From a virus: a stretch of DNA of 64,000 bases. The notes under the pieces were generated by a model that searched no databases, had not been told where the DNA came from, and saw only the letters and a program-made list of their open reading frames with translations. The stretch is from UHGV virus genome UHGV-1493261; one strand, given 5' to 3'. Numbering within the stretch: the stretch's first letter is position 1; each line of letters opens with the position of its first letter. The translations under genes and the position numbers were made by a program. Shown piece after piece: positions 1 to 15,456 of the stretch.

Positions 1-8
1 GCGAGCTG

Positions 9-437
9 TTGTTTACTGTACCGACTCCAGCTGCTGGCGATACGGACGCGATCTTTGCCGATATGCTGGCCAAGGGGTATCTGGTGTATGACCTCACCCA
101 CGATGTCTACTCCTTTACTTCGCTGAACACCGTGTTTGGATTCACCATCACATCTGAAGCCAACATCCCTGACTGGGGTATCTTGGCATGGGGTGTTGAC
201 GGCCTGGGTGCAACCTACGCATCTTCTGACGTCGGTGCAGTTCTGATTGATGAGGGTGTCACCATGGAGCAGTACCTTGCCCAGTTCCCTCAGCACAATA
301 TCACAGGCAGCGACATCATTTTGGTCCAGCCTGGCGCTATCGCTCTCCCCCGTTTGGTGGGTGGATGGAATCCTCGGCTGAAGGACATCATCGCAGGTAT
401 TCGATCCCACATTCCGGTTGTGAATCCGACGCCGTAA
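9..437 (+). CDS. 3' portion of a gene truncated by the window start; unknown function
   Basis: ORF open from the window edge to the stop at 435-437, followed by a hairpin terminator; no recognisable motif. Confidence 0.4.
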   Translation: MFTVPTPAAGDTDAIFADMLAKGYLVYDLTHDVYSFTSLNTVFGFTITSEANIPDWGILAWGVDGLGATYASSDVGAVLIDEGVTMEQYLAQFPQHNITGSDIILVQPGAIALPRLVGGWNPRLKDIIAGIRSHIPVVNPTP

Positions 438-453
438 AAATAATTCAATAAAA

Positions 454-470
454 GGGGCTTTCGCCCCTTT
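454..470 (+). terminator. Rho-independent terminator-like hairpin (GGGGC-tttc-GCCCC + TTT)
   Basis: 5-6 bp GC stem read at 454-467, short T run; sits after the stop at 437. Confidence 0.45.
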
Positions 471-496
471 ACTTCTTCAATATCCTTCCCTATACT
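468..496 (+). promoter_or_regulatory. sigma70-like early promoter: -35 TTTACT, 17-nt spacer, -10 TATACT
   Basis: Hexamers and 17-nt spacing read directly; same architecture recurs at 7135, 14183 and 33188. Confidence 0.5.
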
Positions 497-523
497 TCAT
501 TCCATAAGCAGTACGACACCAAC

Positions 524-548
524 TTGAAAAGCAGGAACTATATCATGA
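524..548 (+). promoter_or_regulatory. Conserved translation-initiation box TTGAAAAGCAGGAACTATATCATGA
   Basis: Near-identical to 14242-14265; related boxes at 7200-7238, 33227-33262 and 54408-54437 (minus). Confidence 0.4.
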
Positions 549-862
549 CACAACTCAAGAACTTCACAGCCGATGACATGTTTGCCTTCCAGGGTGCTGA
601 GCACTTTGCTGACGGCTCCGTACCTCGCATCTACTACTTCTCCGACGAAGAGATGGAAGCGTTCTTCGACCTGATGGAAAAGGACTACGAACCAGGCGAC
701 TTCGTTTATATCATCCATCACGCTGAAGGACTGACCTTGGGTTGGACGGCCAACAACGAACCAGAAGAAGTAAACTTCCCTGAAGGTATCATGTCAGAGC
801 GCGTCGAATATCTACTGGAAGCCCTGGACCCCACACCCTCCCGCTCTGGGCGATGTCTGTAG
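545..862 (+). CDS. hypothetical early protein (105 aa)
   Basis: ATG at 545 with AGGA 8 nt upstream; the track's TTG start at 524 is probably an extension. Confidence 0.5.
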   Translation: MTQLKNFTADDMFAFQGAEHFADGSVPRIYYFSDEEMEAFFDLMEKDYEPGDFVYIIHHAEGLTLGWTANNEPEEVNFPEGIMSERVEYLLEALDPTPSRSGRCL

Positions 863-884
863 CCCAAGTTCAAAAATAAGATAA

Positions 885-904
885 GGGGGCTGACGCTCCC
901 TTTT
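885..904 (+). terminator. terminator-like hairpin GGGGGC-tgac-GCTCCC + TTTT
   Basis: Inverted repeat with one G-U pair, followed by TTTT. Confidence 0.4.
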
Positions 905-954
905 GGTTTCGCTAATTAGAAGAAACCGCCGTTAATTCAGTCAGGAGATATAAA

Positions 955-3669
955 ATGTCAAAGCTAAGTTTCCTCCAGTTCATGCAGGAAAGAGATCAGT
1001 TGGACGAAGCGTTCAACTCCGCTCCGTATGAGCTGACTATGGGTAAGAAGAACGCAGGCGATGTGTTCTTCACCTTCGTCGACGAAGATGAAAAGGAATA
1101 CCGTATTCAGTTCTATACCCCTCAGGGGCTGGGCAAGAGCGTTCGTCAGGTTTTCATCGGTCAGAAGCGCGGCTCCGTCTATCCTGACGCCATCGCTCGC
1201 TTCAAGAACCCAATGCGCGTTATCGCTTCCATGATCGAAGCGACCAAACAATTCATGGCGACTCCTCTGGGCAAGACCATCGATGGCTTTGCTGTCAACT
1301 TCTCGAAGAAAGCGCTGGATCGCGGTATGACCCTAATTCCTAAGATCATCCGCCAGTCCGGCCTGAAACAAAAACTGAATGTCATGGACCTGACCTACGC
1401 GCCTGTCCCTGACCGTGGTTATGTGTGGCTGGTCCGCAAGGGTAAAGATCCGGCTCAGGTATTCGACGGTCCGAAGATGCAGGGTATCACCTGGGATGAT
1501 CCAGACAAGGTCGGCGACGTTCCGGTTCAGAATAATACTTCGGATGTGGGAGTTGGGGCTGGTTCTTCTGAAATCGAAGTCAACCGCGAGTGGTACAACA
1601 GCTCGGACACTGGTCTGGAGTTGAAGAGCGGGCGAGACCCGATTCGTGGAAACTACGTCCGCCTGATAAGCGGTTCGAAAGAAGTAGCCGCATTCTATGG
1701 TTATGATTTTGACAAATATCCAGACGGGACTGAGGTATCTTGGAATATGAAGCGCGGCTTCACCAACCAAGACTTGGTCGGTGCGTCCATGACCAAACAG
1801 AAGAAAGGCATGTACGATCAGTACACTTTCAAGAAAGGTGCTCAGATAATTCTGGTGGTGGACGTTGACACCAGCAATGACACCAGCAATGACACCAGCA
1901 ATGACAACGGTTGGAAACTCACAAAAGCCGATGCCACTCAACCAATGTTAGTATGGGCGGGGAAAGAAAAAGGTCGCTTAGTCACGGCAAATATCGCTCC
2001 CCACTACAATGAGCCGGGCGTGTATGTTGGCGCATACATGAATGAGAAACCTGTGCGTGGGCAAAGTGCTGATTTCATTGCTCGTCAGTTGAAATTACCA
2101 CAAGTCCCTATCAGTATCCTGAATGATTTCACCACGGCGTCCACAAAATTTTGGAAAGGTTCTCAGCAGAAGTCCGCGCCAGCTGACTCTAACACCACAA
2201 TCGGGGCAACCAGTATCGATCAATTGCGTGACAGCGGTTTCATCGCTCGTGTTCTGGGTATCATTGATGCCAACATTGACCAGAAAGCAAGCCATCTCCC
2301 AGGGGAAAGCATTAAGAAGATCGGACAGGCACGTTATCAAACTAAAGGTGGTCTGGTGATCATCGTCAGCTTCGATTCAGTCGATGGCAAGAATCTGACC
2401 TACAACGTGTTCTCTGAAATCGAAACTCAGCCTGGTGTCATCTCTGGCGATGCTCGTCTGGTGGCAAACAAAATCATGGAAACGATCACACACGTGGCCA
2501 AACATCAGTACACTGGCAAATGGGAAATTAGCGCAGTGCCAACAAGCGCTCCATACCCTATCAAAGCCATTCGCCGTTCTCGGGGCTGGGGTTATGTGGA
2601 AACCGCAAACTGGACTCTGAAAGTGTCCGACGCTGTCCTGAATCGTGTGAAGCCAGGGAACACTGCTCTGCTGGAACTCATCAAAGAACCTCCTCGTGGC
2701 AAGCACCTGCTGGTAATCATCCCAGAGAAGGGCGACAAGACCCTGATGCTGAAAGATCGTATTAGCGGGGCCATCTATGGTTCTATCGACCTGAATGCCC
2801 AGGGTGCTGATATGGTCAACTCTGGAACCCTGAAGATGCCACGCAACGCCATGGTGTTTGGCGAGACTGTCAACGGTATGTCTATCACTTGGTCTGGAAT
2901 CAATTTCCCGAAAACTGGGAAGTATGATGGTGCTGTATTGACCACGAATGTGACCTATTACTACGACAAAGGAAAAGTCGCGTTCACACCGATGATCTCC
3001 CAGAAAGGGCGGCTGCTGAACAATCCGAAGACATATGAACTTCCTTTGAATAAAGACATTGTTCAGGCATTGATCGATGAAATTTCTTCTAAAATGGAAA
3101 TGATATCTCGGAATATGCAAACTCTGAAAAGCACGTCGCATAATCCGAAACAAGTATTTTTGGACGACATTTCTGTTGACAACAACGGTTCAGTCCTTTG
3201 GCGCGGGTACGACATGGCGGATCGCCGCACTAATGATTTTATGTTGGGTATCCTGTCCAAAGAAACCGAGAGACTGGAGAAAGAGTCGAGTACTGCGAAG
3301 AAGACTGGTGCCGACCTTGCGGCATACGCCGACTCCATCCGCGACAACGCACCAAAAGGTCGCGACCTGGATTGGCAGATCTATGCAAGCCGTGATGGTC
3401 AGACTCTGAACGTGGACTGGGATATCACCTTCCGCCGCAACACAACTGAAGGGGCATATCGCGAGTTCAAAGCTCAGATTGACCGCGCCAACCAGTACCT
3501 GCAGACTCTGTACCGGGATGCGAAGTCCAAGGGTTACAACCCGACTGAACCAAACCTGATGACTCTGGCTAGCGCCCAGCAGTCTGACCAGTGGTCACAA
3601 GACAACGGGGAAAGCGCATACAGCGAGTACGAGCAGTCCCTGGGTGGAAACATGCAGATCAAGATCTGA
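955..3669 (+). CDS. large hypothetical protein (904 aa) with internal DTSN x3 repeat
   Basis: Long uninterrupted ORF with SD CAGGAG; no family motif recognised. Confidence 0.6.
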   Translation: MSKLSFLQFMQERDQLDEAFNSAPYELTMGKKNAGDVFFTFVDEDEKEYRIQFYTPQGLGKSVRQVFIGQKRGSVYPDAIARFKNPMRVIASMIEATKQFMATPLGKTIDGFAVNFSKKALDRGMTLIPKIIRQSGLKQKLNVMDLTYAPVPDRGYVWLVRKGKDPAQVFDGPKMQGITWDDPDKVGDVPVQNNTSDVGVGAGSSEIEVNREWYNSSDTGLELKSGRDPIRGNYVRLISGSKEVAAFYGYDFDKYPDGTEVSWNMKRGFTNQDLVGASMTKQKKGMYDQYTFKKGAQIILVVDVDTSNDTSNDTSNDNGWKLTKADATQPMLVWAGKEKGRLVTANIAPHYNEPGVYVGAYMNEKPVRGQSADFIARQLKLPQVPISILNDFTTASTKFWKGSQQKSAPADSNTTIGATSIDQLRDSGFIARVLGIIDANIDQKASHLPGESIKKIGQARYQTKGGLVIIVSFDSVDGKNLTYNVFSEIETQPGVISGDARLVANKIMETITHVAKHQYTGKWEISAVPTSAPYPIKAIRRSRGWGYVETANWTLKVSDAVLNRVKPGNTALLELIKEPPRGKHLLVIIPEKGDKTLMLKDRISGAIYGSIDLNAQGADMVNSGTLKMPRNAMVFGETVNGMSITWSGINFPKTGKYDGAVLTTNVTYYYDKGKVAFTPMISQKGRLLNNPKTYELPLNKDIVQALIDEISSKMEMISRNMQTLKSTSHNPKQVFLDDISVDNNGSVLWRGYDMADRRTNDFMLGILSKETERLEKESSTAKKTGADLAAYADSIRDNAPKGRDLDWQIYASRDGQTLNVDWDITFRRNTTEGAYREFKAQIDRANQYLQTLYRDAKSKGYNPTEPNLMTLASAQQSDQWSQDNGESAYSEYEQSLGGNMQIKI
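1867..1902 (+). repeat. perfect 12-bp tandem repeat x3 (GACACCAGCAAT), in frame, encoding DTSN-DTSN-DTSN
   Basis: Three identical adjacent copies read directly. Confidence 0.9.
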
Positions 3670-3677
3670 TCATCGAA

Positions 3678-3693
3678 AGCCCCTTCGGGGGCT
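3678..3693 (+). terminator. terminator hairpin AGCCCC-ttcg-GGGGCT
   Basis: Perfect 6-bp GC-rich stem immediately after the stop at 3669. Confidence 0.55.
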
Positions 3694-3701
3694 TATAAAT
3701 A
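3694..3701 (+). promoter_or_regulatory. T4-type late promoter TATAAATA
   Basis: Exact TATAAATA octamer 25 nt upstream of the ATG at 3726. Confidence 0.6.
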
Positions 3702-3725
3702 ACTGAAATCCCCGAGGAGATTAAG

Positions 3726-4031
3726 ATGAAACCGTTTATCGAATATTTTAAAGAACAAGCCGCTAAACCTCAGACCCATGCTGGTGTCCAGGGTAAGACC
3801 GTATCCATCACCAAGCAAGCTGACGGCACCCAGTGGTGTTCCGGCGCTACCGTGACCCAGATCACTCCTGACAATCAGGCGGATGTCTACAACCTGGAGT
3901 TAACCAACGGCAACACCATCAAGGTGAAGCTGACCCCAGACCAGACTCACGGTATCTCCCAAGGTCAGGAAGTCGTTGCTGTCCATGACGGTTTCGAATT
4001 CTTCTTTGGCAAGCCTGCCGACAAAGACTAA
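3726..4031 (+). CDS. hypothetical late protein (101 aa)
   Basis: ORF with SD GAGGAG; preceded by a late promoter. Confidence 0.55.
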   Translation: MKPFIEYFKEQAAKPQTHAGVQGKTVSITKQADGTQWCSGATVTQITPDNQADVYNLELTNGNTIKVKLTPDQTHGISQGQEVVAVHDGFEFFFGKPADKD

Positions 4032-4062
4032 GTGAAACCATCAAGATGACTCTTGATCATAA

Positions 4063-4091
4063 TCCCCCTAAATACAGGGGGATTTCTTTTT
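4063..4091 (+). terminator. terminator hairpin TCCCCC-taaataca-GGGGGA + T-rich tail; loop carries a TAAATA late-promoter-like core (4067-4074)
   Basis: Inverted repeat plus TTTCTTTTT. Confidence 0.5.
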
Positions 4092-4105
4092 CTGAGGACA
4101 ACATC

Positions 4106-4459
4106 ATGGTCAATGCGAGTATTTTCATCAACCGTGGACTGCTTGCTATAGCCCACTCTCATGCCTTGCACTTCGTTACAACGTCCTATGCCAAGCACAA
4201 GGCACTCGGGGAGTTCTACGGGGATCTAGAGGACTTGCTGGACACGTTTACCGAAGCATACATCGGTGCAGGTGGTCAGTATGTTCCATCATTCGAGAAT
4301 ATCAAATTGTACAACCCAGACCCTATCTCCTATATTAACAGTGTGGTGATAGACGTCGATGGCATCTACAAGCAGTGTGACTCCCACCTTCAGAGCACTC
4401 TTGACGATATCAAGACACTGTGCTATCAGACGATCTACAAACTGAAGCAGCTGTCGTAA
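4106..4459 (+). CDS. hypothetical protein (117 aa)
   Basis: ATG at 4106 with GAGG 9 nt upstream; the track start at 4046 lies inside the terminator hairpin and is unlikely. Confidence 0.5.
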   Translation: MVNASIFINRGLLAIAHSHALHFVTTSYAKHKALGEFYGDLEDLLDTFTEAYIGAGGQYVPSFENIKLYNPDPISYINSVVIDVDGIYKQCDSHLQSTLDDIKTLCYQTIYKLKQLS

Positions 4460-4516
4460 GTCAATACGAAATAAAGGCATATAATTTTGCTCATTATTCA
4501 CCAAAAGGAAAGGACA

Positions 4517-5128
4517 ATGAGCAAAATCTTTATCCCGTCACACCGCGAAGGATGTGAAATCGCGGCCAACTACCTGCGCGGTCGCATGAACTGCGGCGCT
4601 GTCTTCATCGAGCCAAATTCGTTTGACAACAAAGAATCACCTGATGCCATCGGGTTCCGTTCCGGCGGTTGCTCTATCCTGATGGAAGTGAAGGTGTCTC
4701 GCTCTGATTTCCTTACCGACAAGAAGAAGCCTCATCGCATGGATCCGACGACGGGCATGGGCGCATACCGCTTTTATGTCTGCCCTCAGGACGTGATCAG
4801 GGTTGAAGACCTACCACCGAAGTGGGGGCTGTTCTACTTCACACCCCGCAAGTCCCTGATGCCAGTTCATGTGCCAGACATGCGGTACTCTTTATTGTCA
4901 TCACCAGATCATTATCAGAAGTACCTTGATGAACAGATCAAGAGAGGAAGAACCGTTACTCGGCATATGCGCAGCTACATGGAACTCCTCGAAGGCTTCG
5001 CCCACTTTGAGCGCAACACTGCCGGGGAGCAGAATATCCTGTATGGGGCTTGGCGCCAACTGTGTATAGCTCAAAGTCGTGGTGTAGACTATACTGTGAC
5101 CGAAGTGTTCCAGAGGCCGAAGATCTAA
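4517..5128 (+). CDS. putative PD-(D/E)xK-type nuclease
   Basis: Motif sPDaigf...ilmEvKvS; ATG at 4517 with SD AAAGGAAAGGA; stop overlaps the next start (TAATG). Confidence 0.4.
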   Translation: MSKIFIPSHREGCEIAANYLRGRMNCGAVFIEPNSFDNKESPDAIGFRSGGCSILMEVKVSRSDFLTDKKKPHRMDPTTGMGAYRFYVCPQDVIRVEDLPPKWGLFYFTPRKSLMPVHVPDMRYSLLSSPDHYQKYLDEQIKRGRTVTRHMRSYMELLEGFAHFERNTAGEQNILYGAWRQLCIAQSRGVDYTVTEVFQRPKI

Positions 5129-5784
5129 TGAACTATCAAAAAATTCATGACGCTATAATAACCAGAGCCAGGGATAGAATTTTAACTGGTTACAAGGAAA
5201 AACACCACGTCATCCCTCTATCTCTTGGTGGTGAAGACAGGAACTACAATAAAGTTTCTCTCACAGCATCTGAACATTATATTATTCATCTTCTGTTGGC
5301 AAAAATTCACGGCGGGGTAATGGTCAGCGCATTTAAAAAGATGCGCCACTTGACCTCTAATCCTCCAAACAATAAAGAATTTGCCGCCAGGAGGGAATTG
5401 TTGTGTACGACAGCCGGAGAGAAAGCGAAAGATCCACAAAAACGGAAAAATCATTCTCTGAAAATGAAGGGTAGAAACCATACAGAATCTACCAAATTGT
5501 CAATATCTAATTCCATGACTGGGGAGAATAACCCAATGAAGGGGATACCTGCATGGAGGAATCCGACCAACATCAGCCGAGGAACCCATAAAAATTGGTT
5601 GGCGGCTGGAGAAATTTATGACTTGTACATCACAGGGAAATTTTTAAGAGTTATCGACCTCTTCAATGCTTGCAAATTGCCGACATCATACGGAACGGTT
5701 TCCACCATAAAAACAAAATTGGAATTGGGTTGGAAACCAAGGAAAGACGCGGATTGGTTGCAATTCTATGAGGAACACAAATGA
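5128..5784 (+). CDS. HNH homing endonuclease (free-standing)
   Basis: Motif HHVIPLSLGGEDRNYNKVSLTASEHYIIH; visibly AT-richer than neighbours; translationally coupled on both sides. Confidence 0.7.
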   Translation: MNYQKIHDAIITRARDRILTGYKEKHHVIPLSLGGEDRNYNKVSLTASEHYIIHLLLAKIHGGVMVSAFKKMRHLTSNPPNNKEFAARRELLCTTAGEKAKDPQKRKNHSLKMKGRNHTESTKLSISNSMTGENNPMKGIPAWRNPTNISRGTHKNWLAAGEIYDLYITGKFLRVIDLFNACKLPTSYGTVSTIKTKLELGWKPRKDADWLQFYEEHK

Positions 5785-6839
5785 AATTTCTCGACGAACA
5801 ATTCATAAATTACGTTGCTCCCAGACTCGATAAATTCAAGTGGGAACGTGTTGGGTCTGTCGCAAATTTTAGATGCCCGCTTTGTGGAGATTCTCTCAAA
5901 AGTGCTAATAAGCGACGCGGTTATTTTTTCTTCGATCGAGATAATGATTGCTTTCGGTTCAAATGTCATAATTGCCATAACATGAATGGCTGGTCATTTG
6001 AGTTCTGGCTGAAGAAGTTCGACGAACGCCTCTCAACAGAGTACAACATGGAGAAGTTCCGTCTGCTGGGTGATACTTCGGGCAGACCACTTCCTTCCCT
6101 GAAGCCGTTGCCAAAGCTGACACAGACCGCCCGTATTGGCTCAGTGGCGGCAAAACGCGACGAGAGCCTCCTCGGCAATATGCTACGACTTGATCTGCTA
6201 CCGCCTGACCATAAGGCTCGACAGTACGTACAGTGGCGTGGACTGCCGGATAGCACTTTGTCCCTCCTGTATTACACACAGCACTTCCGCCAGGATCTAC
6301 TCCAGTTCGAAACGAACCCTGAGAAGCAGCTGAAAATTCCCGATGACGAGCGCCTGGTAATCCCATTCTGGACTCAGGATGGTCGCATGAAGATCGTTCA
6401 GGGGCGTGCATTCGACAAGAATGCGACACTGCGCTACGCAACAGTCAAGCCCAAGGATGAAGACACTAAGGTCTATGGTGAAGACCGGGTGAACATTCAC
6501 AAAACCAAGCTGGTTGTGGAAGGTCCGATTGACAGCCTGTTCCTACCCAACTGTCTTGCATCGGCCGACGCTGATCTACTGAGCGTGAAGGGTGACATTT
6601 ATATCCCTGATAATCAGTACCGGAACCCGCAGGTATGTGATGGCATTCAGAAGATGATAGATAAAGGTGTCAAGGTCGTCCTCTTCCCGCCGAATATTCC
6701 GTGGAAGGACATCAATGATATGGTCATGCCTTCGAAGGGTAACATGGCCATACGAGACCTCCTGAAGCTGATCGCCCAGAACGTCTACCAGGGGATGGCT
6801 GCATCACTGCAATTTGCTGAACTGAGGAAAGTGAGATGA
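5781..6839 (+). CDS. 61: DNA primase, T4 gp61-like
   Basis: N-terminal zinc ribbon CPLCGDS...CHNC; motifs VEGPIDSLF and WKDINDM match T4 gp61 as I recall it. Confidence 0.85.
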   Translation: MKFLDEQFINYVAPRLDKFKWERVGSVANFRCPLCGDSLKSANKRRGYFFFDRDNDCFRFKCHNCHNMNGWSFEFWLKKFDERLSTEYNMEKFRLLGDTSGRPLPSLKPLPKLTQTARIGSVAAKRDESLLGNMLRLDLLPPDHKARQYVQWRGLPDSTLSLLYYTQHFRQDLLQFETNPEKQLKIPDDERLVIPFWTQDGRMKIVQGRAFDKNATLRYATVKPKDEDTKVYGEDRVNIHKTKLVVEGPIDSLFLPNCLASADADLLSVKGDIYIPDNQYRNPQVCDGIQKMIDKGVKVVLFPPNIPWKDINDMVMPSKGNMAIRDLLKLIAQNVYQGMAASLQFAELRKVR

Positions 6840-7042
6840 CATTAGAAGAACTGAACAAACTGGACGACGGGGAGATCGTGCGGGGGTACTTGAAATCTCG
6901 TGAGGGGTATGTCCTATCTGGGGAAGAGTCTCCGAGTTTCATCCACGGCTGGAAGAATGGTCAGGTGGACTTCCATGGGGTTCCCATCAGTGCTGAGCAG
7001 GCCGAATTGGCTCGCGAGTTTGTAAGATTTCGCCCGAACTAA
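6836..7042 (+). CDS. small hypothetical protein (68 aa)
   Basis: ORF coupled to the primase stop (ATGA overlap). Confidence 0.4.
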   Translation: MTLEELNKLDDGEIVRGYLKSREGYVLSGEESPSFIHGWKNGQVDFHGVPISAEQAELAREFVRFRPN

Positions 7043-7070
7043 AACTTTTTACTTCACATTACTTCCCTCC

Positions 7071-7094
7071 AGGCCTCGTCGAATGAGGCCTTTT
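7071..7094 (+). terminator. terminator hairpin AGGCCTC-gtcgaat-GAGGCCT + TTTT
   Basis: Perfect 7-bp stem plus T run. Confidence 0.6.
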
Positions 7095-7134
7095 AAAATA
7101 CTTCAAAAATATTTTAAAAAATTATTGAAAAGAC

Positions 7135-7163
7135 TTTACTATTCAATAATAGCGCACTATTAT
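7135..7163 (+). promoter_or_regulatory. sigma70-like early promoter: -35 TTTACT, 17-nt spacer, -10 TATTAT, AT-rich upstream region
   Basis: Direct read; A/T tract 7095-7130 upstream. Confidence 0.55.
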
Positions 7164-7199
7164 AATTCACATAGGGCGGTAACACACCGCCGAATGAAA

Positions 7200-7238
7200 G
7201 TGAAACGCACCAACTACATTATGAGGAATTACATCATG
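7200..7238 (+). promoter_or_regulatory. Conserved translation-initiation box, tandem ACTACATyATG copies
   Basis: caACTACATTATGAGGaattACATCATGg. Confidence 0.4.
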
Positions 7239-7724
7239 GCTACTACCAAAACTCTGATCACCAACGGCACCATCTCTTTCGAACTGAACACCGAAGTTGC
7301 TAAAGTTGAAATGTTCCGCATAGCTCAGGCAGCTGGCTTCACTGGTGGCAAAACTTCCTTCATGAACCTACTGAACGGTAAAGTGAAAGCGACTAACGGC
7401 TTCACCCTGGTAGAGCAGGTTGTGGTTGATAAAGCTGTGGTTGCTAAGACTGCCGACAAAGTTGGTATGCTGAAAAGCCTGGGCCACGACATCCGCATTG
7501 TCGAAGCAAACACCGAAACTTACGGCACCATCGTAGTCGGTAAAGGTCGCATCCAGCTGAACCCGCTGAACAACGGTTCCTTCTCTGTGATGGTCTTCCC
7601 TAAGAAGGGCTACGACAACACCGACATCGTGAAAGCTGCTGGTGGCGAAGCAAAAGCTCAGTACGTCAAAATGGGTAAACTGAGCGCCGACGCAGTTGAA
7701 GCTCTGGTGAGCAAACTGGCGTAA
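7236..7724 (+). CDS. hypothetical early protein (162 aa), probably highly expressed
   Basis: ATG at 7236 with GAGG 9 nt upstream; strong promoter and terminators on both sides. Confidence 0.55.
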   Translation: MATTKTLITNGTISFELNTEVAKVEMFRIAQAAGFTGGKTSFMNLLNGKVKATNGFTLVEQVVVDKAVVAKTADKVGMLKSLGHDIRIVEANTETYGTIVVGKGRIQLNPLNNGSFSVMVFPKKGYDNTDIVKAAGGEAKAQYVKMGKLSADAVEALVSKLA

Positions 7725-7731
7725 CCGGTGA

Positions 7732-7765
7732 CGGGGGAGGTGACTCCCCTCCTTTCAGGTTTTTG
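7732..7765 (+). terminator. imperfect GC hairpin followed by TTTCAGGTTTTT
   Basis: GGGGGAGG/CCCCTCC arms with a bulge, then T-rich tail. Confidence 0.4.
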
Positions 7766-7778
7766 GTAGGAGACCATC

Positions 7779-7967
7779 ATGTCACAAGCAATTATCCACC
7801 CCTCTTCAGGCGCTCTCTGGGTAGCCAGCCGCATTCCTAACAAAGTCTTCCCTCAGTTCCAAGAGGAGCTAGAGCAAGCGATGTTGTCCGTGTTGGAAAA
7901 ATACGGATACGACACTGAAGTTCGTGCTTCCTTTGGTGAAATCATGCCCGTGGTGGTGACCCGATGA
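7779..7967 (+). CDS. small hypothetical protein
   Basis: ORF with SD TAGGAGA. Confidence 0.4.
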   Translation: MSQAIIHPSSGALWVASRIPNKVFPQFQEELEQAMLSVLEKYGYDTEVRASFGEIMPVVVTR

Positions 7968-8164
7968 AACTGACTCTAGATCAGTTGGCCAGAGCCTCTT
8001 GCGCCCATCTCAAAGAAGTGACGGGTAAAGTATGGACACCATCCGTAATCACTTCTGCTGGGATGATCATGCTAACATCTGAGTCTTCCGTTCTGACTCT
8101 GTTTTATAGGGAACGAGAAGGTAGTTGGGCAGCTCGGCCTAGTGACAAAACCAAAGAAGAGTGA
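7964..8164 (+). CDS. small hypothetical protein
   Basis: ORF coupled to the upstream stop. Confidence 0.35.
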   Translation: MKLTLDQLARASCAHLKEVTGKVWTPSVITSAGMIMLTSESSVLTLFYREREGSWAARPSDKTKEE

Positions 8165-8275
8165 ATCCGCTGTTGGTGCTTATAACGCCATGAAGCGTGA
8201 CTTTGGTCCGATGATAGCCAAGTACAACACCATGCTGGAATCTATGTAGTCTCAACCCCTATGAGAGGAAACAAA

Positions 8276-8578
8276 ATGTTACACGGCAGCGAACAATCAA
8301 CCAAGATCGCAAAAGATGCAGCTCAGCAATTGGAAGCCCATACCTCCAAGGAATGGAAGGTCGTGGGTAACTCATTCTCTCAAATCACTCTGATGAACGG
8401 GAACGTCTACGTCGACCACCTGATTTCTACTGGTGCTTGGCGAGCAGGGATTCAGGATTTCTGGATCGAAGACCTCGCTGGCGAGTACCTGAGTTCTCCG
8501 ATTGAGGCTTATGACAGCCTGAAAGTCGCTGTCAAAGAACATCTGAAAGAACTTCAAGAAGTTTCAGACAGTCTGTAG
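8276..8578 (+). CDS. hypothetical protein (100 aa)
   Basis: ATG at 8276 with GAGAGGAA upstream. Confidence 0.4.
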   Translation: MLHGSEQSTKIAKDAAQQLEAHTSKEWKVVGNSFSQITLMNGNVYVDHLISTGAWRAGIQDFWIEDLAGEYLSSPIEAYDSLKVAVKEHLKELQEVSDSL

Positions 8579-8606
8579 TACCGCAATTCCTCAAGTTCAC
8601 TTTCAC

Positions 8607-8639
8607 TTTAAATACCTCTGCATTCATTGTGGAGGTATT
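8607..8639 (+). promoter_or_regulatory. late-promoter-like TTTAAATA (8607-8614) overlapping the 5' arm of a hairpin (8611-8619 / 8631-8639) whose 3' arm contains the endolysin SD GGAGG
   Basis: AATACCTCT pairs with GGAGGTATT; the ATG at 8644 follows. Confidence 0.45.
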
Positions 8640-8643
8640 TCTT

Positions 8644-9438
8644 ATGGCCATTCTAAAACTTGGCAACCGTGGCACTGAAGTGAAGGCACTTCAGAATAGC
8701 CTCAACAAAATCGGCTTCACCCTCGTCGCTGATGGTATCTTTGGCAAGGCAACAGAGAACGCTGTCAAGACTGTTCAGGCGGGTGCGGGGCTTGTCATTG
8801 ATGGTATCGTGGGTCCAAAGACCTCCTATGCTATTCGCAACGCCGGAGACGCCCATCAGGATCATCTAACTGAGTCAGACCTGATTGATGCTGCTAACGA
8901 TCTGGGTGTTGACCTCGCCTCTGTCAAGGCGGTGAATCAGGTTGAGTCACGCGGTACGGGCTTCACCAAGTCAGGTAAGATCAAGACATTGTTTGAGCGC
9001 CACATCATGTATAAGAAGCTGACGGCGAAGTTCGGGCAGGCTCGGGCGAATGCCATGGGACATATGTACCCGACGTTGGTCAGCCCTTCCGCAGGCGGGT
9101 ACACGGGTGGCGACGCGGAGTTGGATCGACTTCATGCAGCGATCAACATCGACGAGGATTGTGCGTACGAGAGTGCCTCATACGGCCTCTTTCAGATCAT
9201 GGGCTTCAACTGCCAGGTCTGTGGGTATGCCAACGCCAAGGAGATGTTCAACGACTTCCTGACAGGCGAACGCGCTCATTTGATGGCATTCGTGAAGTTC
9301 ATCAAGGCTGACGCCAAGCTCTGGCAGGCTCTGAAGGACAAGAACTGGGCTGAGTTTGCGCGGCGCTATAATGGTCCGGCATATGCCAAGAACCAGTACG
9401 ACACGAAGCTCGCTGCTGCATACCGCAGCTTCAGTTAA
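8644..9438 (+). CDS. endolysin: N-terminal peptidoglycan-binding domain plus muramidase-like catalytic domain
   Basis: PG-binding repeat LGNRGTEVKALQNSLNKIGF...DGIFGKATENAV; C-terminal region SYGLFQIMGFN. Confidence 0.7.
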   Translation: MAILKLGNRGTEVKALQNSLNKIGFTLVADGIFGKATENAVKTVQAGAGLVIDGIVGPKTSYAIRNAGDAHQDHLTESDLIDAANDLGVDLASVKAVNQVESRGTGFTKSGKIKTLFERHIMYKKLTAKFGQARANAMGHMYPTLVSPSAGGYTGGDAELDRLHAAINIDEDCAYESASYGLFQIMGFNCQVCGYANAKEMFNDFLTGERAHLMAFVKFIKADAKLWQALKDKNWAEFARRYNGPAYAKNQYDTKLAAAYRSFS

Positions 9439-9442
9439 CTCA

Positions 9443-9466
9443 AAGGCCGGAAACGGCCTTTTCTTT
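9443..9466 (+). terminator. terminator hairpin AGGCCG-gaaa-CGGCCT + TTTCTTT
   Basis: Perfect 6-bp stem plus T run after the stop at 9438. Confidence 0.6.
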
Positions 9467-9539
9467 ATCCAATCCTCAGGTATGCTGGGTTGTCACCTTA
9501 ATTAGAGGTGATGACACCCTGAGATATAGGAAGGTTCCC

Positions 9540-10382
9540 ATGCAATCTGCCACCAAAGTTGTAAGTAAGAAGCCAGCGGGCAAGACCAAGTCAGCACGTA
9601 AGAAGGAGACAATCCAGAAAGAAGATGACTGGATGAAGTTCTCTAAAGGTGACTTCAGAATCGCTCCGTTCAATGGCCTCTCAGAAAATCAGAACCTCGC
9701 GTATCAATCTGCTCTTGAAGAAAACCTCACCATCGCAATCGGTCCGGCAGGCACAGGTAAATCGTACTGTGGTGCCTCAGCCGCCGCCAAGCTCCTGATC
9801 GATAAAGTAGTCAGCAAGATCGTCATCACGCGCTCTCCGCTACCAACAGGCCAGACTGCAGGCTTCCGCCCTGGCGACACATACGAAAAGCTGATGCCAT
9901 ATCTGATGCCCCTGATTCAGACGCTGAAGAAGGTGCTGAAGACTGACACAGGTAGCGACGGTTTCTTCAACTATCTGTGGGAGAAGCGGATCATTGAGAT
10001 CCAGGATCTGGAGACCATCAAGGGGATGACCTTCGACGACACCTTCCTGATCATTGAAGAAGCGCAGGAATGTGATATGGAGCAACTGAAGAACCTACTG
10101 ACCCGCGCATCCGACTCGACTTACATCTTTGTCAACGGTGACATCAAACAGTCTAACAAGCGCCTGCGTGAAAGCGCCCTGGAAAAGTACGTCAGTTCCT
10201 TCCGCGACTTCAACACCAAGCTGGAGGCCGGAACCCTGAAGATCGATGGTGTTGGCGTCGGTGATGAGTACCCTGAATGGGTTCAACCGTTCAGTATCAT
10301 CGAGTTCGACAAGTCTGACCGCAACGGGCGCGGCGACTTCACCCGCCTGATGCTGGAAGTCAACGATCTGTACGACATTTAA
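9540..10382 (+). CDS. phoH: PhoH-like P-loop ATPase
   Basis: Walker A GPAGTGKS and overall PhoH-like layout. Confidence 0.75.
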   Translation: MQSATKVVSKKPAGKTKSARKKETIQKEDDWMKFSKGDFRIAPFNGLSENQNLAYQSALEENLTIAIGPAGTGKSYCGASAAAKLLIDKVVSKIVITRSPLPTGQTAGFRPGDTYEKLMPYLMPLIQTLKKVLKTDTGSDGFFNYLWEKRIIEIQDLETIKGMTFDDTFLIIEEAQECDMEQLKNLLTRASDSTYIFVNGDIKQSNKRLRESALEKYVSSFRDFNTKLEAGTLKIDGVGVGDEYPEWVQPFSIIEFDKSDRNGRGDFTRLMLEVNDLYDI

Positions 10383-10465
10383 GTAACTCGCCAACCCTCC
10401 CCGCCGCCTTCAATCTACGAGGGCGGCGTATAATAAAACCTGCGTAAACAAACCCGAGGAACACC

Positions 10466-12748
10466 ATGATTAACGTTATAAAACGTGACGGATCTTCTGT
10501 CCCATTTGATATTGAGAAACTACACGCAGTCGTAGACCGCGCATGTGATGGCTTGCCTGGTGTATCAATGTCAGAGGTGATCGCTGCATCGAAGATTCAG
10601 TTCACCGACAACATGAGAACAGATCGCATTCAGGATATCCTCATCCAGGCTGCAGCTTCACTGATCTCTGTAGAGAAACCCAACTACCAGTATGTGGCCG
10701 CTCGCCTGAAGTCATATGATCTGCGCAAGGCTGTCTATGGCCAGTACAAGCCGCCTCACCTGCTGGATATCTTCGTCAAGAACATCAAACAGCGCGTGTA
10801 TGATCGTGAGTTCCTTGATCTCTACACGACCGAAGAGTTCAACGAACTGAACGATGTTATCAACCACAAACGTGACAAGAACTTCACCTGGGCGGCCATG
10901 GGTCAGCTGACAGAGAAGTATCTGCTGCGTGACCGTTCCAAGAAGGACAGCAAGATCTTCTACGAAACCCCTCAGGTCATGTACATGGGCATCGCCATGG
11001 CGTTGTTCTCTAACTGGGACAGAGACAGCCGCCTGGAAATGGTTAAGAAGTTCTATGAATATGCCAGCACAGGCAAGTTCAGTCTTCCAACCCCGATTAT
11101 GGCAGGCGTTCGTACTCCTACCCGTCAGTTCAGTTCCTGCGTGTTAATCAAGACTGATGACACCCTGAACTCTATCAACGCAACAGCCAAGACCATCGTT
11201 GACTATGTGTCCAAACGTGCGGGTATCGGCTTCGACGTCGGGGCTATCCGTGGGATTGGTAGTCCTATTCGCGGCGGAGAAATGGTTCACACAGGCCTGA
11301 TCCCGTTCATCAAGTACCTCACTGGCGCACTGAAGTCGTGCTCTCAGGGCGGCATTCGTGGTGGTGCGGCAACAGCATACATCCCTCTGTGGCATTACCA
11401 GTTCGATGACGTCGTTGTTCTGAAGAACAACCGTGGTACTGAAGAAAACCGCGAACGCCGTATCGACTATGGCATTCAGATCAACCGCGTGATGTTTGAG
11501 CGCCTGGTTGCCAAGCAGCCTCTGTATCTGTTCGACCCGAAAGACAACCGCGAAATGTATGAAGCATACTTCGCTGACGTTGACAAGTTCCGTACTCTGT
11601 ATGAGAACATGATCAAGGCCGCTGATGCTGGTTTGGTTCGTGCTAAAAAGTTGCAGGCAGAAGAGGTGTTCCAGATGCTGTTAGACCAGCGTTCAGACAC
11701 AGGCCGCATCTACATCGCATTTGTCGATCACATGAATGAATACAGTCCATTCAACCTAGACACGATTTATTCTTCAAATCTTTGTTTAGAAATCGCCCTG
11801 CCGACCCGTGAGTTTGAGCAGTACAACGATGAAAACGGGCGCGTGGCTCTGTGCACCCTGGCTTCCTTCAACCTGACAGCGTTCGAAGATCCTACGGAAA
11901 TGGAAGACGTGGCGTTCGTGTTGGTGTCTGCGCTGGACATGCTGTTGGAATATCAGGACTATCCAGCGATTCAGGCTCGTAAAGCTGTTGAAGACTATCG
12001 TCCTCTGGGTGTTGGTATCGTGAACGTGGCTCACTTCCTGGCCAAGAACTTCACGGGTTATGGCTCACCAGCTGGTCTTGAAATGCTGGATGCGTGGATG
12101 GCACACCTGCACTTCTATCTGGTCAAGGCGTCCAACCGTCTGGCTATGAAGTTCGGTGCTTGCAAACGCAGAACCATCCACAATAATGGGCAGGTCACCG
12201 CCGACCTTCAGCCGCTTCCACTTGATATCCTACCAAATGGCAAGAAGCCGGAAGGGATGGCATACGGGCTGGATTGGGATGAGTTGAAGGATAATCTGAA
12301 GACCTATGGTATCCGCAACGCCACTCTGCTGGCAGTAGCCCCTACCGAAAGCTCCTCACAGGTCCTCAACGCAACGAACGGTATTGAGCCACCGAAGGGC
12401 TTGGTGAGCATCAAGGGTAGCAAGGACGGCACTTATAAGCAGGTCGTCCCGGACGTTGAGACCCTTGGACCGATGTATGACCTCAAGTGGGACCTGGACT
12501 GTATTGAGTACCTGAAGACCGCTGCTGTCATCCAGCGCTGGGTTGACCAGTCCATCAGTACCAACACGTGGTATGACCCAGAGAAGTACCCTGACAGCAA
12601 GATCCCTCGCGCCAAGATGATGCAGGATATCCTGTCGTTCTATATGTGGGGTGGCAAGACTCTGTATTACAACACAAACAAGGACGCCAAGGAAGACGAA
12701 GAGCTGAAGCAGGCTGAGGAAACTCAGTGCGATAGCTGTGTTGTATAA
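10466..12748 (+). CDS. nrdA: ribonucleotide reductase class Ia large subunit
   Basis: ATP-cone N-terminus; active-site stretch SSNLCLEIALPT...ALCTLASFNL; C-terminal CDSC. Confidence 0.9.
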   Translation: MINVIKRDGSSVPFDIEKLHAVVDRACDGLPGVSMSEVIAASKIQFTDNMRTDRIQDILIQAAASLISVEKPNYQYVAARLKSYDLRKAVYGQYKPPHLLDIFVKNIKQRVYDREFLDLYTTEEFNELNDVINHKRDKNFTWAAMGQLTEKYLLRDRSKKDSKIFYETPQVMYMGIAMALFSNWDRDSRLEMVKKFYEYASTGKFSLPTPIMAGVRTPTRQFSSCVLIKTDDTLNSINATAKTIVDYVSKRAGIGFDVGAIRGIGSPIRGGEMVHTGLIPFIKYLTGALKSCSQGGIRGGAATAYIPLWHYQFDDVVVLKNNRGTEENRERRIDYGIQINRVMFERLVAKQPLYLFDPKDNREMYEAYFADVDKFRTLYENMIKAADAGLVRAKKLQAEEVFQMLLDQRSDTGRIYIAFVDHMNEYSPFNLDTIYSSNLCLEIALPTREFEQYNDENGRVALCTLASFNLTAFEDPTEMEDVAFVLVSALDMLLEYQDYPAIQARKAVEDYRPLGVGIVNVAHFLAKNFTGYGSPAGLEMLDAWMAHLHFYLVKASNRLAMKFGACKRRTIHNNGQVTADLQPLPLDILPNGKKPEGMAYGLDWDELKDNLKTYGIRNATLLAVAPTESSSQVLNATNGIEPPKGLVSIKGSKDGTYKQVVPDVETLGPMYDLKWDLDCIEYLKTAAVIQRWVDQSISTNTWYDPEKYPDSKIPRAKMMQDILSFYMWGGKTLYYNTNKDAKEDEELKQAEETQCDSCVV

Positions 12749-12780
12749 ATTGGTCTAAACCTACTACCGTTATATCATCA

Positions 12781-12803
12781 GGGGTGAGAGATCACCCCTT
12801 ATT
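12781..12803 (+). terminator. hairpin GGGGTGA-gaga-TCACCCC between nrdA and nrdB (weak T tail)
   Basis: Perfect 7-bp stem; tail TTATT only. Confidence 0.35.
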
Positions 12804-12818
12804 AATCAGGAAAGAAAC

Positions 12819-13922
12819 ATGAGCGAACAGAAACAATTCTCCGTATTCGACCCAAGCTCGGACAACACTGGTCTACCGTTCTTCGGTGACCCAGTGAGCA
12901 TCCAGCGTTACGATGTCGTGGCCTGGCCATTCGTACAGAAGTGGTATGAGAAAGGTCTCAGTCAATTCTGGCGTCCTGAAGAGGTGGACATCACCAAGGA
13001 CAAGGCAGACTTCGCTACTCTGAACGAAGCAGAGAAACATGTCTACTTCAGCAACCTGAAGCGCCAGACCATGCTGGACTCTATCCAGGGTGCGGCTCCG
13101 TTCGAGGCGTTTGGTCCATGGGCGTCTACCCCTGAAATGCAGTTTGCTGTCCTTGAATGGACGCGCCAGGAAGCCATTCACTCTTTATCGTACACCCACA
13201 TTTTGCGCAATACTGTGAACGATCCAGGTATCGTGTTTGACCACGTACTGGATGTTGTGGAGATCGTGGACTGTGCTCACCAGATCAGTGTGTACTACGA
13301 TGACATGGTACAGTACAGTGGCATGCGTATGGCCGGACGCATCTTCACCCGAGAAGATCTGATGAATGCCAAACGCGCATTCTGGCGTGCTCTGTTTGCT
13401 GCCAACACACTGGAAGGCATCCGCTTCTACGTGTCCTTTGCATGCTCTTGGGCATTCACACAGTTCCAGAAGAAGATGGAAGGCAATGCCAAAATCATTC
13501 GACAGATCGCCCGTGATGAGCAGGATCACCTGATCCTGACCCAGACGCTGCTAAACCGCCTGCCTGGTATGGACCCCGACTTTGCAATCATCCGTGAGGA
13601 ACTGCGTGGTGAGATGACCCAGATGTTCCTGGACGTGGTCCATCAGGAGAAGGAGTGGGCGAACTACCTATTCAAAGACGGTTCCATCCTGGGGCTGAAC
13701 GCCAAGATCCTTCATCAGATGGTAGACTGGCTGGCAACCCACCGGATGGGCGCTATCGGGCACCCATATCCCGGTGAACCTCGCAAGGAGAACCCAGTCC
13801 CATGGATTAATGACTGGCTAGATAATAAGGCAATGCAGTACGCGTTGCAGGAAGCGGAAGCTCCTGATTATCTGATGGGTGTACTGACTGGTTCGGTATC
13901 CGATGGCCTCAAATTCGCTTAA
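12819..13922 (+). CDS. nrdB: ribonucleotide reductase class Ia small subunit
   Basis: Di-iron/tyrosyl-radical family pattern (EAIHSLSY, RDEQDHL). Confidence 0.85.
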   Translation: MSEQKQFSVFDPSSDNTGLPFFGDPVSIQRYDVVAWPFVQKWYEKGLSQFWRPEEVDITKDKADFATLNEAEKHVYFSNLKRQTMLDSIQGAAPFEAFGPWASTPEMQFAVLEWTRQEAIHSLSYTHILRNTVNDPGIVFDHVLDVVEIVDCAHQISVYYDDMVQYSGMRMAGRIFTREDLMNAKRAFWRALFAANTLEGIRFYVSFACSWAFTQFQKKMEGNAKIIRQIARDEQDHLILTQTLLNRLPGMDPDFAIIREELRGEMTQMFLDVVHQEKEWANYLFKDGSILGLNAKILHQMVDWLATHRMGAIGHPYPGEPRKENPVPWINDWLDNKAMQYALQEAEAPDYLMGVLTGSVSDGLKFA

Positions 13923-13931
13923 AGGTGAGAA

Positions 13932-14156
13932 ATGATTACGATCTATTCCAAACAAGGTTGCGCTCAGTGTGTAACAGCCGAAAATCTGTGCAAAATGAAA
14001 GGGCTGGAACACAAGATCCTCAAGCTGGACAAAGATTACCGGCTGGAAGAACTTCAGCAGTTGACGGGTAAGCCGCGCGTGTCGATGCCTGTAATCGTCC
14101 TCGCTGACCAGACCGTGACCGACGTTAATGGACTCGCCGCCAGCCTTAAACGCTGA
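13932..14156 (+). CDS. glutaredoxin/NrdH-like redoxin (74 aa)
   Basis: CAQC redox motif near the N-terminus; sits directly after nrdB. Confidence 0.6.
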   Translation: MITIYSKQGCAQCVTAENLCKMKGLEHKILKLDKDYRLEELQQLTGKPRVSMPVIVLADQTVTDVNGLAASLKR

Positions 14157-14164
14157 CAAGCCAA

Positions 14165-14185
14165 AGCCCCTCATTGAGGGGCTTT
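14165..14185 (+). terminator. terminator hairpin AGCCCCTC-att-GAGGGGCT
   Basis: Perfect 8-bp stem. Confidence 0.55.
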
Positions 14186-14211
14186 ACTTCTATAATCCCT
14201 GCGCTTATACT
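14183..14211 (+). promoter_or_regulatory. sigma70-like early promoter: -35 TTTACT, 17-nt spacer, -10 TATACT
   Basis: Same architecture as 468-496. Confidence 0.5.
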
Positions 14212-14241
14212 TCCCAGTAATTCATTGGCATTCGCCACAAA

Positions 14242-14265
14242 TTGAAAGCGGGAACTATATCATGA
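14242..14265 (+). promoter_or_regulatory. Conserved translation-initiation box TTGAAAGCGGGAACTATATCATGA
   Basis: Near-identical to 524-548. Confidence 0.4.
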
Positions 14266-14723
14266 CAAACAAAGTACTCACCAACCCACTGCACAACTTC
14301 GGTTACATTCAACTCCCTCTGGTGATCGACACCCTGTACGCCGACGACAAAGAAGAGATCTGCTGGTCACCCACCGCACTGATTGAACGCGAAATCTTCA
14401 AGTCTGTTGTTGATGTCATGTTCCGTATCGGTCGCAATGGACCTCTGGTCTACCTCGGCAAGGTGACTGAGTTGAAGACAAGCCACAACGAACGCTTCCT
14501 TCGTATCGATACAACGGGGTGCTCTCAGCAGGACTTCAACACACTACGTAACTATGTACTGATCAACCGTCCGGTCAGCCAGCACCGCCCGTACCTGACG
14601 TCAATGCACATCGACAATTTCATCACCGACGTGCACCTCCGCGCCGAAACCCTTCATGAAGAGGAAACAGGCCGAGCTATCGACACAGTCTTAAATATGG
14701 TTGTGATCACCCTGGCGGAGTAG
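14262..14723 (+). CDS. hypothetical early protein (153 aa)
   Basis: ORF preceded by the promoter cassette. Confidence 0.5.
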   Translation: MTNKVLTNPLHNFGYIQLPLVIDTLYADDKEEICWSPTALIEREIFKSVVDVMFRIGRNGPLVYLGKVTELKTSHNERFLRIDTTGCSQQDFNTLRNYVLINRPVSQHRPYLTSMHIDNFITDVHLRAETLHEEETGRAIDTVLNMVVITLAE

Positions 14724-14728
14724 TCCTC

Positions 14729-15079
14729 ATGCAAGATTACAAAGAGCTGAGCATGCAGCTGGCAGTCCCCATACCCGACAAAGATTTATACCAGAACCTG
14801 CATCATCTGATGTCTGAAGGACACATGCTGTCATTGCAGTCTGAGGATGGAACTCAGATCGGTTATGCCACCAGTTGCGTGGTCTACGACAAACCAGGAG
14901 ACGAAGAGCGCGGACAGGTCAGTGTGGGTTCCAGATTTGTGTTGAACAAGAAGCTGGAGGGATCAGTGGTTGACGTCAGGCCGATGATTATCCTCTACCA
15001 CTTCAACGGTAAAGAGATGTTCAGGTTATTGAGCCACTTCATGTTAGTCGTGGCTCCGGCATTCAGGACGAAATTCTAA
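14729..15079 (+). CDS. hypothetical protein (116 aa)
   Basis: ORF. Confidence 0.45.
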   Translation: MQDYKELSMQLAVPIPDKDLYQNLHHLMSEGHMLSLQSEDGTQIGYATSCVVYDKPGDEERGQVSVGSRFVLNKKLEGSVVDVRPMIILYHFNGKEMFRLLSHFMLVVAPAFRTKF

Positions 15080-15456
15080 TTCGTCCTTTTCAACCACACG
15101 GTGTCTGTTATTGGATCTGGATTGTTGACCACATAGAATGTGATGGTAACGCCCAGAGAATGGTAATCCTCTGACAGACTCACCGTGACTTCTTCTACCT
15201 CTGCTCTGGGTTCATACAGGGCGATAGCGTCCTCTACTTTGTTCCTCACGTCTACCTGGATAGTCGGTGTCGTGTTTTCGCCCAGCAGCCCATAAAGCCC
15301 CGCGCCGATCCCAGGATAAGTAGGCCAATCCCCAACCGAAGACATGACGATATTCCGCACGGATTGTAAGACAGCATACACACCTGATTTCATGGTGACA
15401 TCTTTGGTCACCGGATGCATGCCGAACTTCAGATCGACATCTTTATACTCTTTCAT
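15076..15456 (-). CDS. 25: baseplate wedge protein, T4 gp25-like
   Basis: Matches my recollection of T4 gp25 (PGIGAGL..LLGE, YEPR, NPDPI). Confidence 0.75.
   Translation of the reverse strand: MKEYKDVDLKFGMHPVTKDVTMKSGVYAVLQSVRNIVMSSVGDWPTYPGIGAGLYGLLGENTTPTIQVDVRNKVEDAIALYEPRAEVEEVTVSLSEDYHSLGVTITFYVVNNPDPITDTVWLKRTN

Follow-up and report, generated by a model that had tools for sequence, protein, structure and literature searches.

A repeated candidate early-expression cassette of PeSL type at variable gene slots of an Agtrevirus-like phage

The 64,000-nt stretch of viral DNA analysed here (the window) contains two collinear intergenic cassettes, c1 (447-550) and c2 (14162-14267), in which a GC hairpin, a promoter-like site TTTACT-N17-TATACT and a leader run into the start codon of a small gene. 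Together with their counterparts in related phages, they are most probably (roughly 0.72 by our estimate) PeSL-type composite early-expression cassettes, of the kind known from T4-like phages, which also act as a homology arm for gene swapping. The early transcription signals of ViI-like phages have so far been poorly defined, and the cassette family offers a concrete set of predicted early promoter, terminator and leader units. It also points to fixed slots in which unrelated small genes appear to be swapped under identical expression signals, a place to seek host-takeover or anti-defence genes. The same slots are candidate safe insertion sites for the engineering of these phages, which are widely used in therapy and biocontrol.

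By megablast, bases 1-20000 of the window matched 276 phage records, nearly all of them from Ackermannviridae. The top match was Escherichia phage YX22 (96.8% identity over 93% of the query), Shigella phage Ag3 was 92% identical over the same bases, and the Salmonella and Klebsiella members were mostly 60-80% identical over the 20 kb. Because of the YX22 and Ag3 matches, the window is assigned to an Agtrevirus-like, ViI-like phage of the Ackermannviridae; T4-type replication and morphogenesis genes are present in it. One patch of 363 nt (1542-1904), located within an ORF of 904 aa (955-3669), is 97.5% identical to Klebsiella phage Magnus (Taipeivirus), whereas its flanks are only 75-82% identical to that phage, which looks like a recent inter-genus exchange inside one gene.

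Anatomy of the cassettes and related sites in the window

The c1 cassette lies on the + strand and opens with an AT-rich, UP-element-like tract (AAATAATTCAATA, 438-450), which directly follows the stop codon (TAA, 435-437) of the upstream gene and may function as an UP element. It is followed by a GC-rich hairpin, AAAGGGGC-TTTC-GCCCCTTT (451-470), with an 8-bp stem and a 4-nt loop, the 3' TTT of which overlaps the -35 hexamer of the promoter-like site TTTACT-N17-TATACT (468-496; -35 at 468-473, -10 at 491-496). Transcription probably starts near A504, giving a CA-rich leader, or putative 5' UTR (504-532), that is predicted to be unstructured and that leads into the initiation block AGGAACTATATCATGACA (533-550), with the Shine-Dalgarno sequence AGGA (533-536), an 8-nt spacer and the ATG at 545. 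This ATG starts a cargo gene of 105 aa (545-862, + strand) of the Ag3 orf00111 family, and a terminator-like hairpin found by the scan tool (883-902, + strand) closes the c1 unit and forms the right edge of the variable slot.

The c2 cassette, also on the + strand, has the same arrangement after the upstream stop codon at 14154-14156. Its hairpin, AAAGCCCCTC-ATT-GAGGGGCTTT (14163-14185), has a 10-bp stem and a 3-nt loop, and the stem sequence is G/C-swapped relative to that of c1. The promoter-like site TTTACT-N17-TATACT occupies 14183-14211 (-35 at 14183-14188, -10 at 14206-14211), and the leader with the initiation block (ending in AAATTGAAAGCGGGAACTATATCATGACA) extends over 14219-14267, with the ATG at 14262 starting a cargo gene of 153 aa (14262-14723, + strand) of the Ag3 orf00087 family. 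The hairpin, the promoter hexamers and the leader entering the ATG, as described by the initial annotation, were thus all found in place in both cassettes. The description of the two copies as near-identical did not hold, since the MAFFT alignment of 447-550 with 14162-14267, collinear throughout, gave 76% mean column identity with several gaps. Exact blocks common to both are CTTTACTTCT, TATACTTC and GGAACTATATCATGACA, the last of which occurs exactly twice in the window, and the sole significant BLAST match between c1 and c2 was the 23-nt 3' block (E 2e-5). The similarity nevertheless survived proper alignment: the local alignment score was 58, compared with 14.4 +/- 2.5 for 4983 random windows, the maximum of which was 29.

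Both hairpins are predicted to be stable (-13.5 kcal/mol and z -3.65 for c1, -16.6 kcal/mol and z -4.74 for c2). Shuffled sequence folds better than the c1 leader taken together with the ORF start (z +1.18), and at least as well as the c2 leader, which fits an open initiation region. No Rfam family matched the 64 kb at gathering thresholds and only chance-level matches (E 0.3-0.4) were obtained in the two cassettes, so that a structured leader, a riboswitch or an sRNA was rejected. The scan tool called the c1 hairpin terminator-like on the minus strand only and reported no + strand intrinsic terminator at either c1 or c2, because the T-run is interrupted (TTTACTTC). The c1 hairpin is presumed to be a terminator or attenuator of upstream transcription. 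The hairpins of the c2 and c3 orthologues (c3 and c4 being the two further sites described below) were listed by the authors of the Ag3 genome as rho-independent terminators Torf088 and Torf101 (PMC3121705 Table S2), and the c4 orthologue is Torf057 in their annotation.

The promoter class TTTACT-N17-TAnnnT has four matches in the window (468, 7135, 14183 and 33188) against 0.14 expected, all on the + strand and each with a GC hairpin before it and a + strand ORF after it. The two sites outside c1 and c2 had been said to follow terminators, and T-run hairpins do precede them, at 7071-7095 and 33152-33175. At c3, the hairpin and T-run AGGCCTC-GTCGAAT-GAGGCCT-TTTT (7071-7095, + strand) and an AT-rich tract of 40 nt precede the promoter-like site TTTACT-N17-TATTAT (7135-7163, + strand), and the leader (7174-7239, + strand; folding z -1.56) has a 5' hairpin, GGGCGG...CCGCC, followed by the tandem initiation motifs AACTACATTATGA and AATTACATCATGG. 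The distant member c4 (33152-33216, + strand) combines its hairpin and T-run with TTTACT-N17-TAATAT (33188-33216), and it had no match to a profile built from five cassette copies. Hairpin and promoter are thus present at both c3 and c4, with a longer spacing than in c1 and c2. The c2 and c3 promoter-like sites are conserved in Vi01 and Magnus.

The initiation motif AACTAYATYATGA occurs five times in the window against 0.02 expected, and each copy overlaps an ATG that shares its frame with a downstream ORF. At c1, c2 and 54422 the annotated gene begins with this ATG, and at c3 and c4 the annotated start is located further downstream. The copy at 54419-54431 (AACTACATCATGA, minus strand) is located at the start of a minus-strand gene, matching the start of Ag3 orf00010, and no promoter could be recognised upstream of it. 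At c3, the start annotated in Ag3 is the second ATG (7236) of the tandem pair. The two motifs (7212-7239) are in frame with each other (ATG AGG AAT TAC ATC ATG), and in Klebsiella phage Magnus the first of them forms a 3-codon mini-ORF ending in TAA. The tandem could have been left behind by an old deletion that joined two initiation blocks, or it could encode a leader peptide.

Other regulatory motifs were also encountered in the window. T4-type late-promoter motifs (TATAAATA-like) are located upstream of several genes (~3694-3701, 23260-23312 and 42820-42869), including two divergent gene pairs, each of which has one short intergenic region in common. A second promoter-like class, TTCAAT-N14-TATAAT, has nine matches with one mismatch at most against 0.17 expected: six on the + strand (4460-4485, 10409-10434, 18157-18182, 20001-20026, 26173-26198 and 36923-36948) and three on the minus strand (45653-45678, 55256-55281 and 63410-63435). 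The TATAAT of the copy at 26173-26198 is part of a hairpin, GGGCTGCTATAATAGCAGCTCC. With its short spacer, this class recalls an activator box near -30, not a -35 hexamer. The abstract of the 2012 'Viunalikevirus' paper reportedly mentions conserved regulatory sequences, and the class may, we presume, be the conserved regulatory motif of that paper.

Conservation and paralogous copies

The c1 element of 104 nt was found by BLAST at 731 places in 300 phage records; it was covered to at least 80% in 267 of these, and an identity of 80% or more was reached by all but 14 of the best matches. Represented among the records are Agtrevirus, Limestonevirus, Kuttervirus, Taipeivirus and Serratia phages. 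Loci of the distant genera were retrieved by DNA match, single-protein locus searches having returned close relatives only.

Among 13 aligned c1 orthologues from four genera, conservation was expressed as the mean pairwise identity of each segment. The -35 hexamer is invariant (1.00), and the AT-rich tract (0.99, with 12 of 13 columns invariant) and the hairpin stems (0.98) follow closely, as do the leader 504-529 (0.94, with 22 of 28 columns invariant) and the initiation block (0.91). Values for the upstream CDS end, positions 530-532 and the hairpin loop are 0.74, 0.54 and 0.36, respectively. The c1 stem is paired in 100% of the orthologues, with one compensatory change of G-C to A-U. A hairpin, promoter and initiation region that are functional would be expected to leave such a footprint; the leader is the one part for which known functions do not account, its conservation going beyond what promoter or Shine-Dalgarno function alone would explain.

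The complete genome of Ag3 was searched with the profile of five cassette copies. Three strong copies were found, located at 64.9 (c1), 50.7 (c2) and 100.5 kb. The copies at 144.2, 79.8 and 80.2 kb are weaker, and elsewhere only the initiation block was recovered; all profile copies are on the strand of the early-type gene clusters. The 100.5-kb copy, which lies outside the window and carries its hairpin between the -35 and -10 hexamers, has in common with c1 the spacer TCTTCAATA and a 23-nt leader stretch, TCATTCCATAAGCAGTACGACAC. No consensus requires these sequences, which argues for common descent rather than convergence. The cassette copies appear to be paralogues, each conserved across Ackermannviridae. 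The shorter motif TAYAYYATG is present at about 20 Ag3 gene starts, with or without a promoter.

At 79.4-80.2 kb of Ag3 (L015), each of orf00137-139 has its own hairpin and initiation block, in some cases with a promoter, and Vi01 and Magnus hold different genes at this position. It is probably another variable slot of the c1 kind, outside the window.

A scan of IMG/VR with the 16-mer AGGAACTAYAYCATGA returned at least 120 loci, mostly chance matches in unrelated contigs, and from the loci listed only about two dozen with a promoter upstream were used. In three loci (L041, from a 92.8-kb IMG/VR contig; L103; and L020, on a 165-kb contig), a promoter-like site of the TTTAC type precedes AGGAACTACATCATGA by about 60-70 nt, and the upstream sequence is unlike that of c1, c2 or the 100.5-kb-type cassette. 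The block in these contigs may reflect chance or a wider spread of the initiation block.

Variable slots and recombination junctions

The c1 slot is bounded by a DUF7270 gene and a large gene with the 'MSK.SFLQFMQE' motif, and between these same two flanking genes at least six unrelated gene families (A, B, C, D, E and E2) were found. Family A occupies the slot in the window, LIMEstone1 and Magnus, and family B in Vi01; B is followed by A in Ag3 and L002, C is found in L051, D in P46FS4, and E followed by E2 in L092. Family A is present in 85 phage records and B in 141, compared with about 300 for the cassette. At the right-hand edge of the slot, other phages become homologous again at the terminator hairpin or shortly beyond it, at TCGCTAATTA...GAAACCGCC in the conserved leader of the next gene. 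The other cassettes are also followed by different genes: among the matches listed, the 100.5-kb type precedes family F, G or H, and c2 precedes I alone or J and then I, an ORF of 77 aa being located between the c2 cassette and the 153-aa cargo gene in Vi01, L010 and others. Between genomes, the cargo gene is thus seen to move beside the conserved cassette, and the cassette itself apparently stays.

No relationship was found by all-against-all BLASTP between the proteins encoded behind the cassette copies, so gene duplication does not explain the repeat and was rejected as its source. For all five downstream proteins in the window, the only matches were to PHROGs of unknown function, with none to Pfam; among them are the c1 cargo (phrog_9866) and the c2 cargo (phrog_3902). 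The c1 cargo protein is strongly acidic, with a pI of 4.2 and 22 D+E against 6 K+R in 105 aa.

The junctions were resolved by comparing the window with its relatives. At c1, Ag3 has an insertion of 271 bp (orf00112) relative to the window, with an overlap of 28 nt in the latter, and the extra ORF in Ag3 and L002 has a direct repeat of the initiation block (28 nt) on either side. In a three-way comparison the window corresponds to the left copy up to AGGAACTA and to the right copy from AGGAACTA on, so that the crossover interval, mapped against L002 and Ag3, is AGGAACTA, located just before the ATG. The extra 77-aa ORF of L010 at c2 likewise lies between direct repeats of this block, and a copy of the block separates the two cargo ORFs of L092. 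Such products are what recombination between two block copies, running in either direction, should yield.

The initial annotation had suggested a spread by recombination between promoter regions. The comparative data support recombination at the cassette, but the mapped junctions are in the ribosome-binding block and not in the promoter, and it is the cargo that moves, not the cassette. Its share in the overall divergence is limited: in an unbiased list of the indels between the window and Ag3 over 64 kb, only one out of about 16 is flanked by the cassette repeat, and among the others are indels with homing endonuclease genes and indels that lack a repeat. The cassette can therefore account for no more than a small part of the plasticity, and the idea that it is the main driver was dropped. 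One ORF of the window (5050-5784) has a NUMOD3 motif and is homing-endonuclease-like; about 650 nt of it (5132-5780) are missing from Ag3, whose endonuclease genes are at other sites.

Interpretation and comparison with known systems

The proposed role of the cassette is as follows. The GC hairpin would end or attenuate transcription coming from the upstream gene, and a promoter of the host sigma-70 or T4-early type, TTTACT-N17-TATACT, with its -35 overlapping the T-rich tail of the hairpin, would restart it; an unstructured leader of about 40 nt would then lead through a fixed ribosome-binding block, AGGAACTAYATCATGA, into the start codon. In this manner the cassette may insulate and restart transcription and provide strong translation of any ORF placed behind it. 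Recombination in the cassette, at the ribosome-binding block, would delete, insert or replace the small accessory genes behind it. Since its conservation greatly exceeds that of the flanking sequence, the cassette may act as a homology arm, and recombination there would leave the slot hypervariable and the expression signals fixed. The promoter and terminator activities, as well as recombination as the cause of cargo turnover, are deduced from sequence comparison, and the turnover could also have arisen by illegitimate recombination, with selection then favouring products that kept the expression signals. The cassette had been described as a duplicated early expression cassette; its repetition is borne out, and the non-consensus spacer and leader in common suggest common descent and not chance promoter likeness, while early timing and transcription initiation we infer from the sigma-70- and T4-early-like hexamers only.

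Independent promoters and ribosome-binding sites might have converged on the same optimal consensus, with neither common descent nor a role for recombination. The moderate identity of c1 and c2 (76%), with shared positions mostly in the -35, the -10 and the stretch from Shine-Dalgarno to ATG, agrees with this, as does the fact that c4 has little in common with the other copies beyond the hexamers. Convergence is nevertheless very unlikely, given the leader stretch of 23 nt and the spacer that c1 and the Ag3 100.5-kb copy share outside any consensus, the repeated block on both sides of the c1 and c2 indels, with the window as an exact left/right chimera, and the presence of the same cassette before three to six unrelated genes at orthologous positions among the matches listed. 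Still less credible, to the point of being extremely improbable, is a small self-copying mobile element or its target site (MITE-like, or a homing endonuclease site). The repeat is intergenic and indel-associated, and several homing endonuclease genes are present in the window and its relatives, but apart from the single hairpin it lacks terminal inverted repeats, it shows no duplication of a target site, its copies occupy fixed orthologous positions in four genera, and no endonuclease gene adjoins c1 or c2, the endonuclease indels being at other sites.

The leader and initiation block might instead act mainly as a cis-acting RNA operator, recognised by a RegA-like repressor or a host RNA-binding protein, and this constraint, not transcription or recombination, would explain their identity in front of unrelated genes. 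T4 RegA binds AU-rich sites overlapping start codons, and Ag3 encodes a RegA homologue, gp137. The high values of the leader and the initiation block (0.94 and 0.91, against 0.36-0.54 for neighbouring unconstrained positions) and the TAYAYYATG motif at Ag3 gene starts irrespective of a promoter fit such an operator. On the other hand, the motif is absent from Ag3 genes 44, 45, 62, regA, 43 and 32, with a partial match only in rIIB, and its absence from these classical RegA targets weakens the idea, which was kept as a weak rival only. Neither a predicted structure nor an Rfam family was found, and the hairpin, the promoter and the repeat-flanked indels are left unexplained by it. As an account of the whole element an operator is unlikely; it is compatible with the PeSL-type cassette and is not a replacement for it. 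A more speculative extension, which we regard as distinctly unlikely, is that the leader and initiation block form a cis-element for a family-specific factor, an RNA-binding regulator or a recombination protein, and that the slot is an integrase-free gene-cassette system. If so, a fixed promoter and an attachment-like junction at the ATG would allow unrelated early accessory genes to be exchanged across the genera of Ackermannviridae, and these genes would be candidates for host takeover or anti-defence.

The preferred reading, that of a PeSL-type cassette, can be set against three known systems. T4 early promoters depend on host sigma-70 and have a -35 of the GTTTAC type and an AT-rich upstream tract. 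The cassette is similar in its -35 TTTACT, 17-nt spacer, TAnnnT -10 and A/T-rich upstream tract, and differs in having TATACT, not TATAAT, as its -10. The authors of the LIMEstone1 genome predicted five early promoters by T4-box similarity without further analysis (PMC3296691), and those of the CBA120 paper reported that ViI-like phages lack homologues of Alt, ModA, MotA and AsiA and that early promoters could not be identified informatically (PMC3184105). The early-promoter list of the Ag3 paper includes only two members of the class, Porf100 and Porf138, and neither c1 nor c2. No usable transcriptome, start-site or reporter results for the cassette sites of Ackermannviridae were found in the literature searched.

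The c1 unit also resembles a moron, the autonomous promoter-gene-terminator unit described in tailed phages by Hendrix and colleagues. Its promoter (468-496) is followed by one small accessory ORF (545-862) and then by a terminator-like hairpin (883-902), and the unit is located between two conserved genes and is patchy among relatives. In contrast to morons, its promoter side belongs to the fixed, conserved backbone and only the ORF is exchanged. As the phage is virulent, the cargo is presumably expressed in lytic infection and not from a prophage.

The closest likeness is to the PeSLs of T4-like phages, elements of about 100 bp composed of an AT-rich tract, a stem-loop terminator or attenuator, a sigma-70-like early promoter, a Shine-Dalgarno sequence and a start codon, which are repeated, precede ORFans and have been linked to indels and replacements (Arbiol et al. 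2010, PMC2839356). On the experimental side, the class is characterised by promoter and terminator activity and by excised mini-circles. All of these parts are present, in the same order, in c1 (438-550) and c2 (14163-14267), and TTTACT-N17-TATACT is close to the T4/PST PeSL promoter consensus TTTACW-N17-TAYWAT, which has a stem-loop just upstream (Comeau et al. 2014, PMC4122927). The cassette is likewise repeated in the genome, precedes ORFans and adjoins indels and replacements between relatives, so that every sequence-level criterion of a PeSL appears to be represented. The differences are that PeSLs belong to Straboviridae and the cassette to Ackermannviridae, for which no paper applying the PeSL concept was found in the literature searched; that RB49 and phi1 have about 50 PeSLs per genome, compared with three strong and a few weaker profile copies in Ag3 and with 731 BLAST places in 300 records; that each Ackermannviridae copy occupies a fixed orthologous locus conserved across genera; that its junctions are in the ribosome-binding block before the ATG, whereas the AT-rich region was proposed for RB49; and that the leader itself is strongly conserved. 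The cassette is therefore best filed as a putative PeSL-type element, a label not previously given to it in Ackermannviridae, with its junction at the ribosome-binding block and its unusually conserved leader as local features. It would carry the PeSL idea, in which recombination takes place at conserved regulatory cassettes, to phages other than the T4-like ones.
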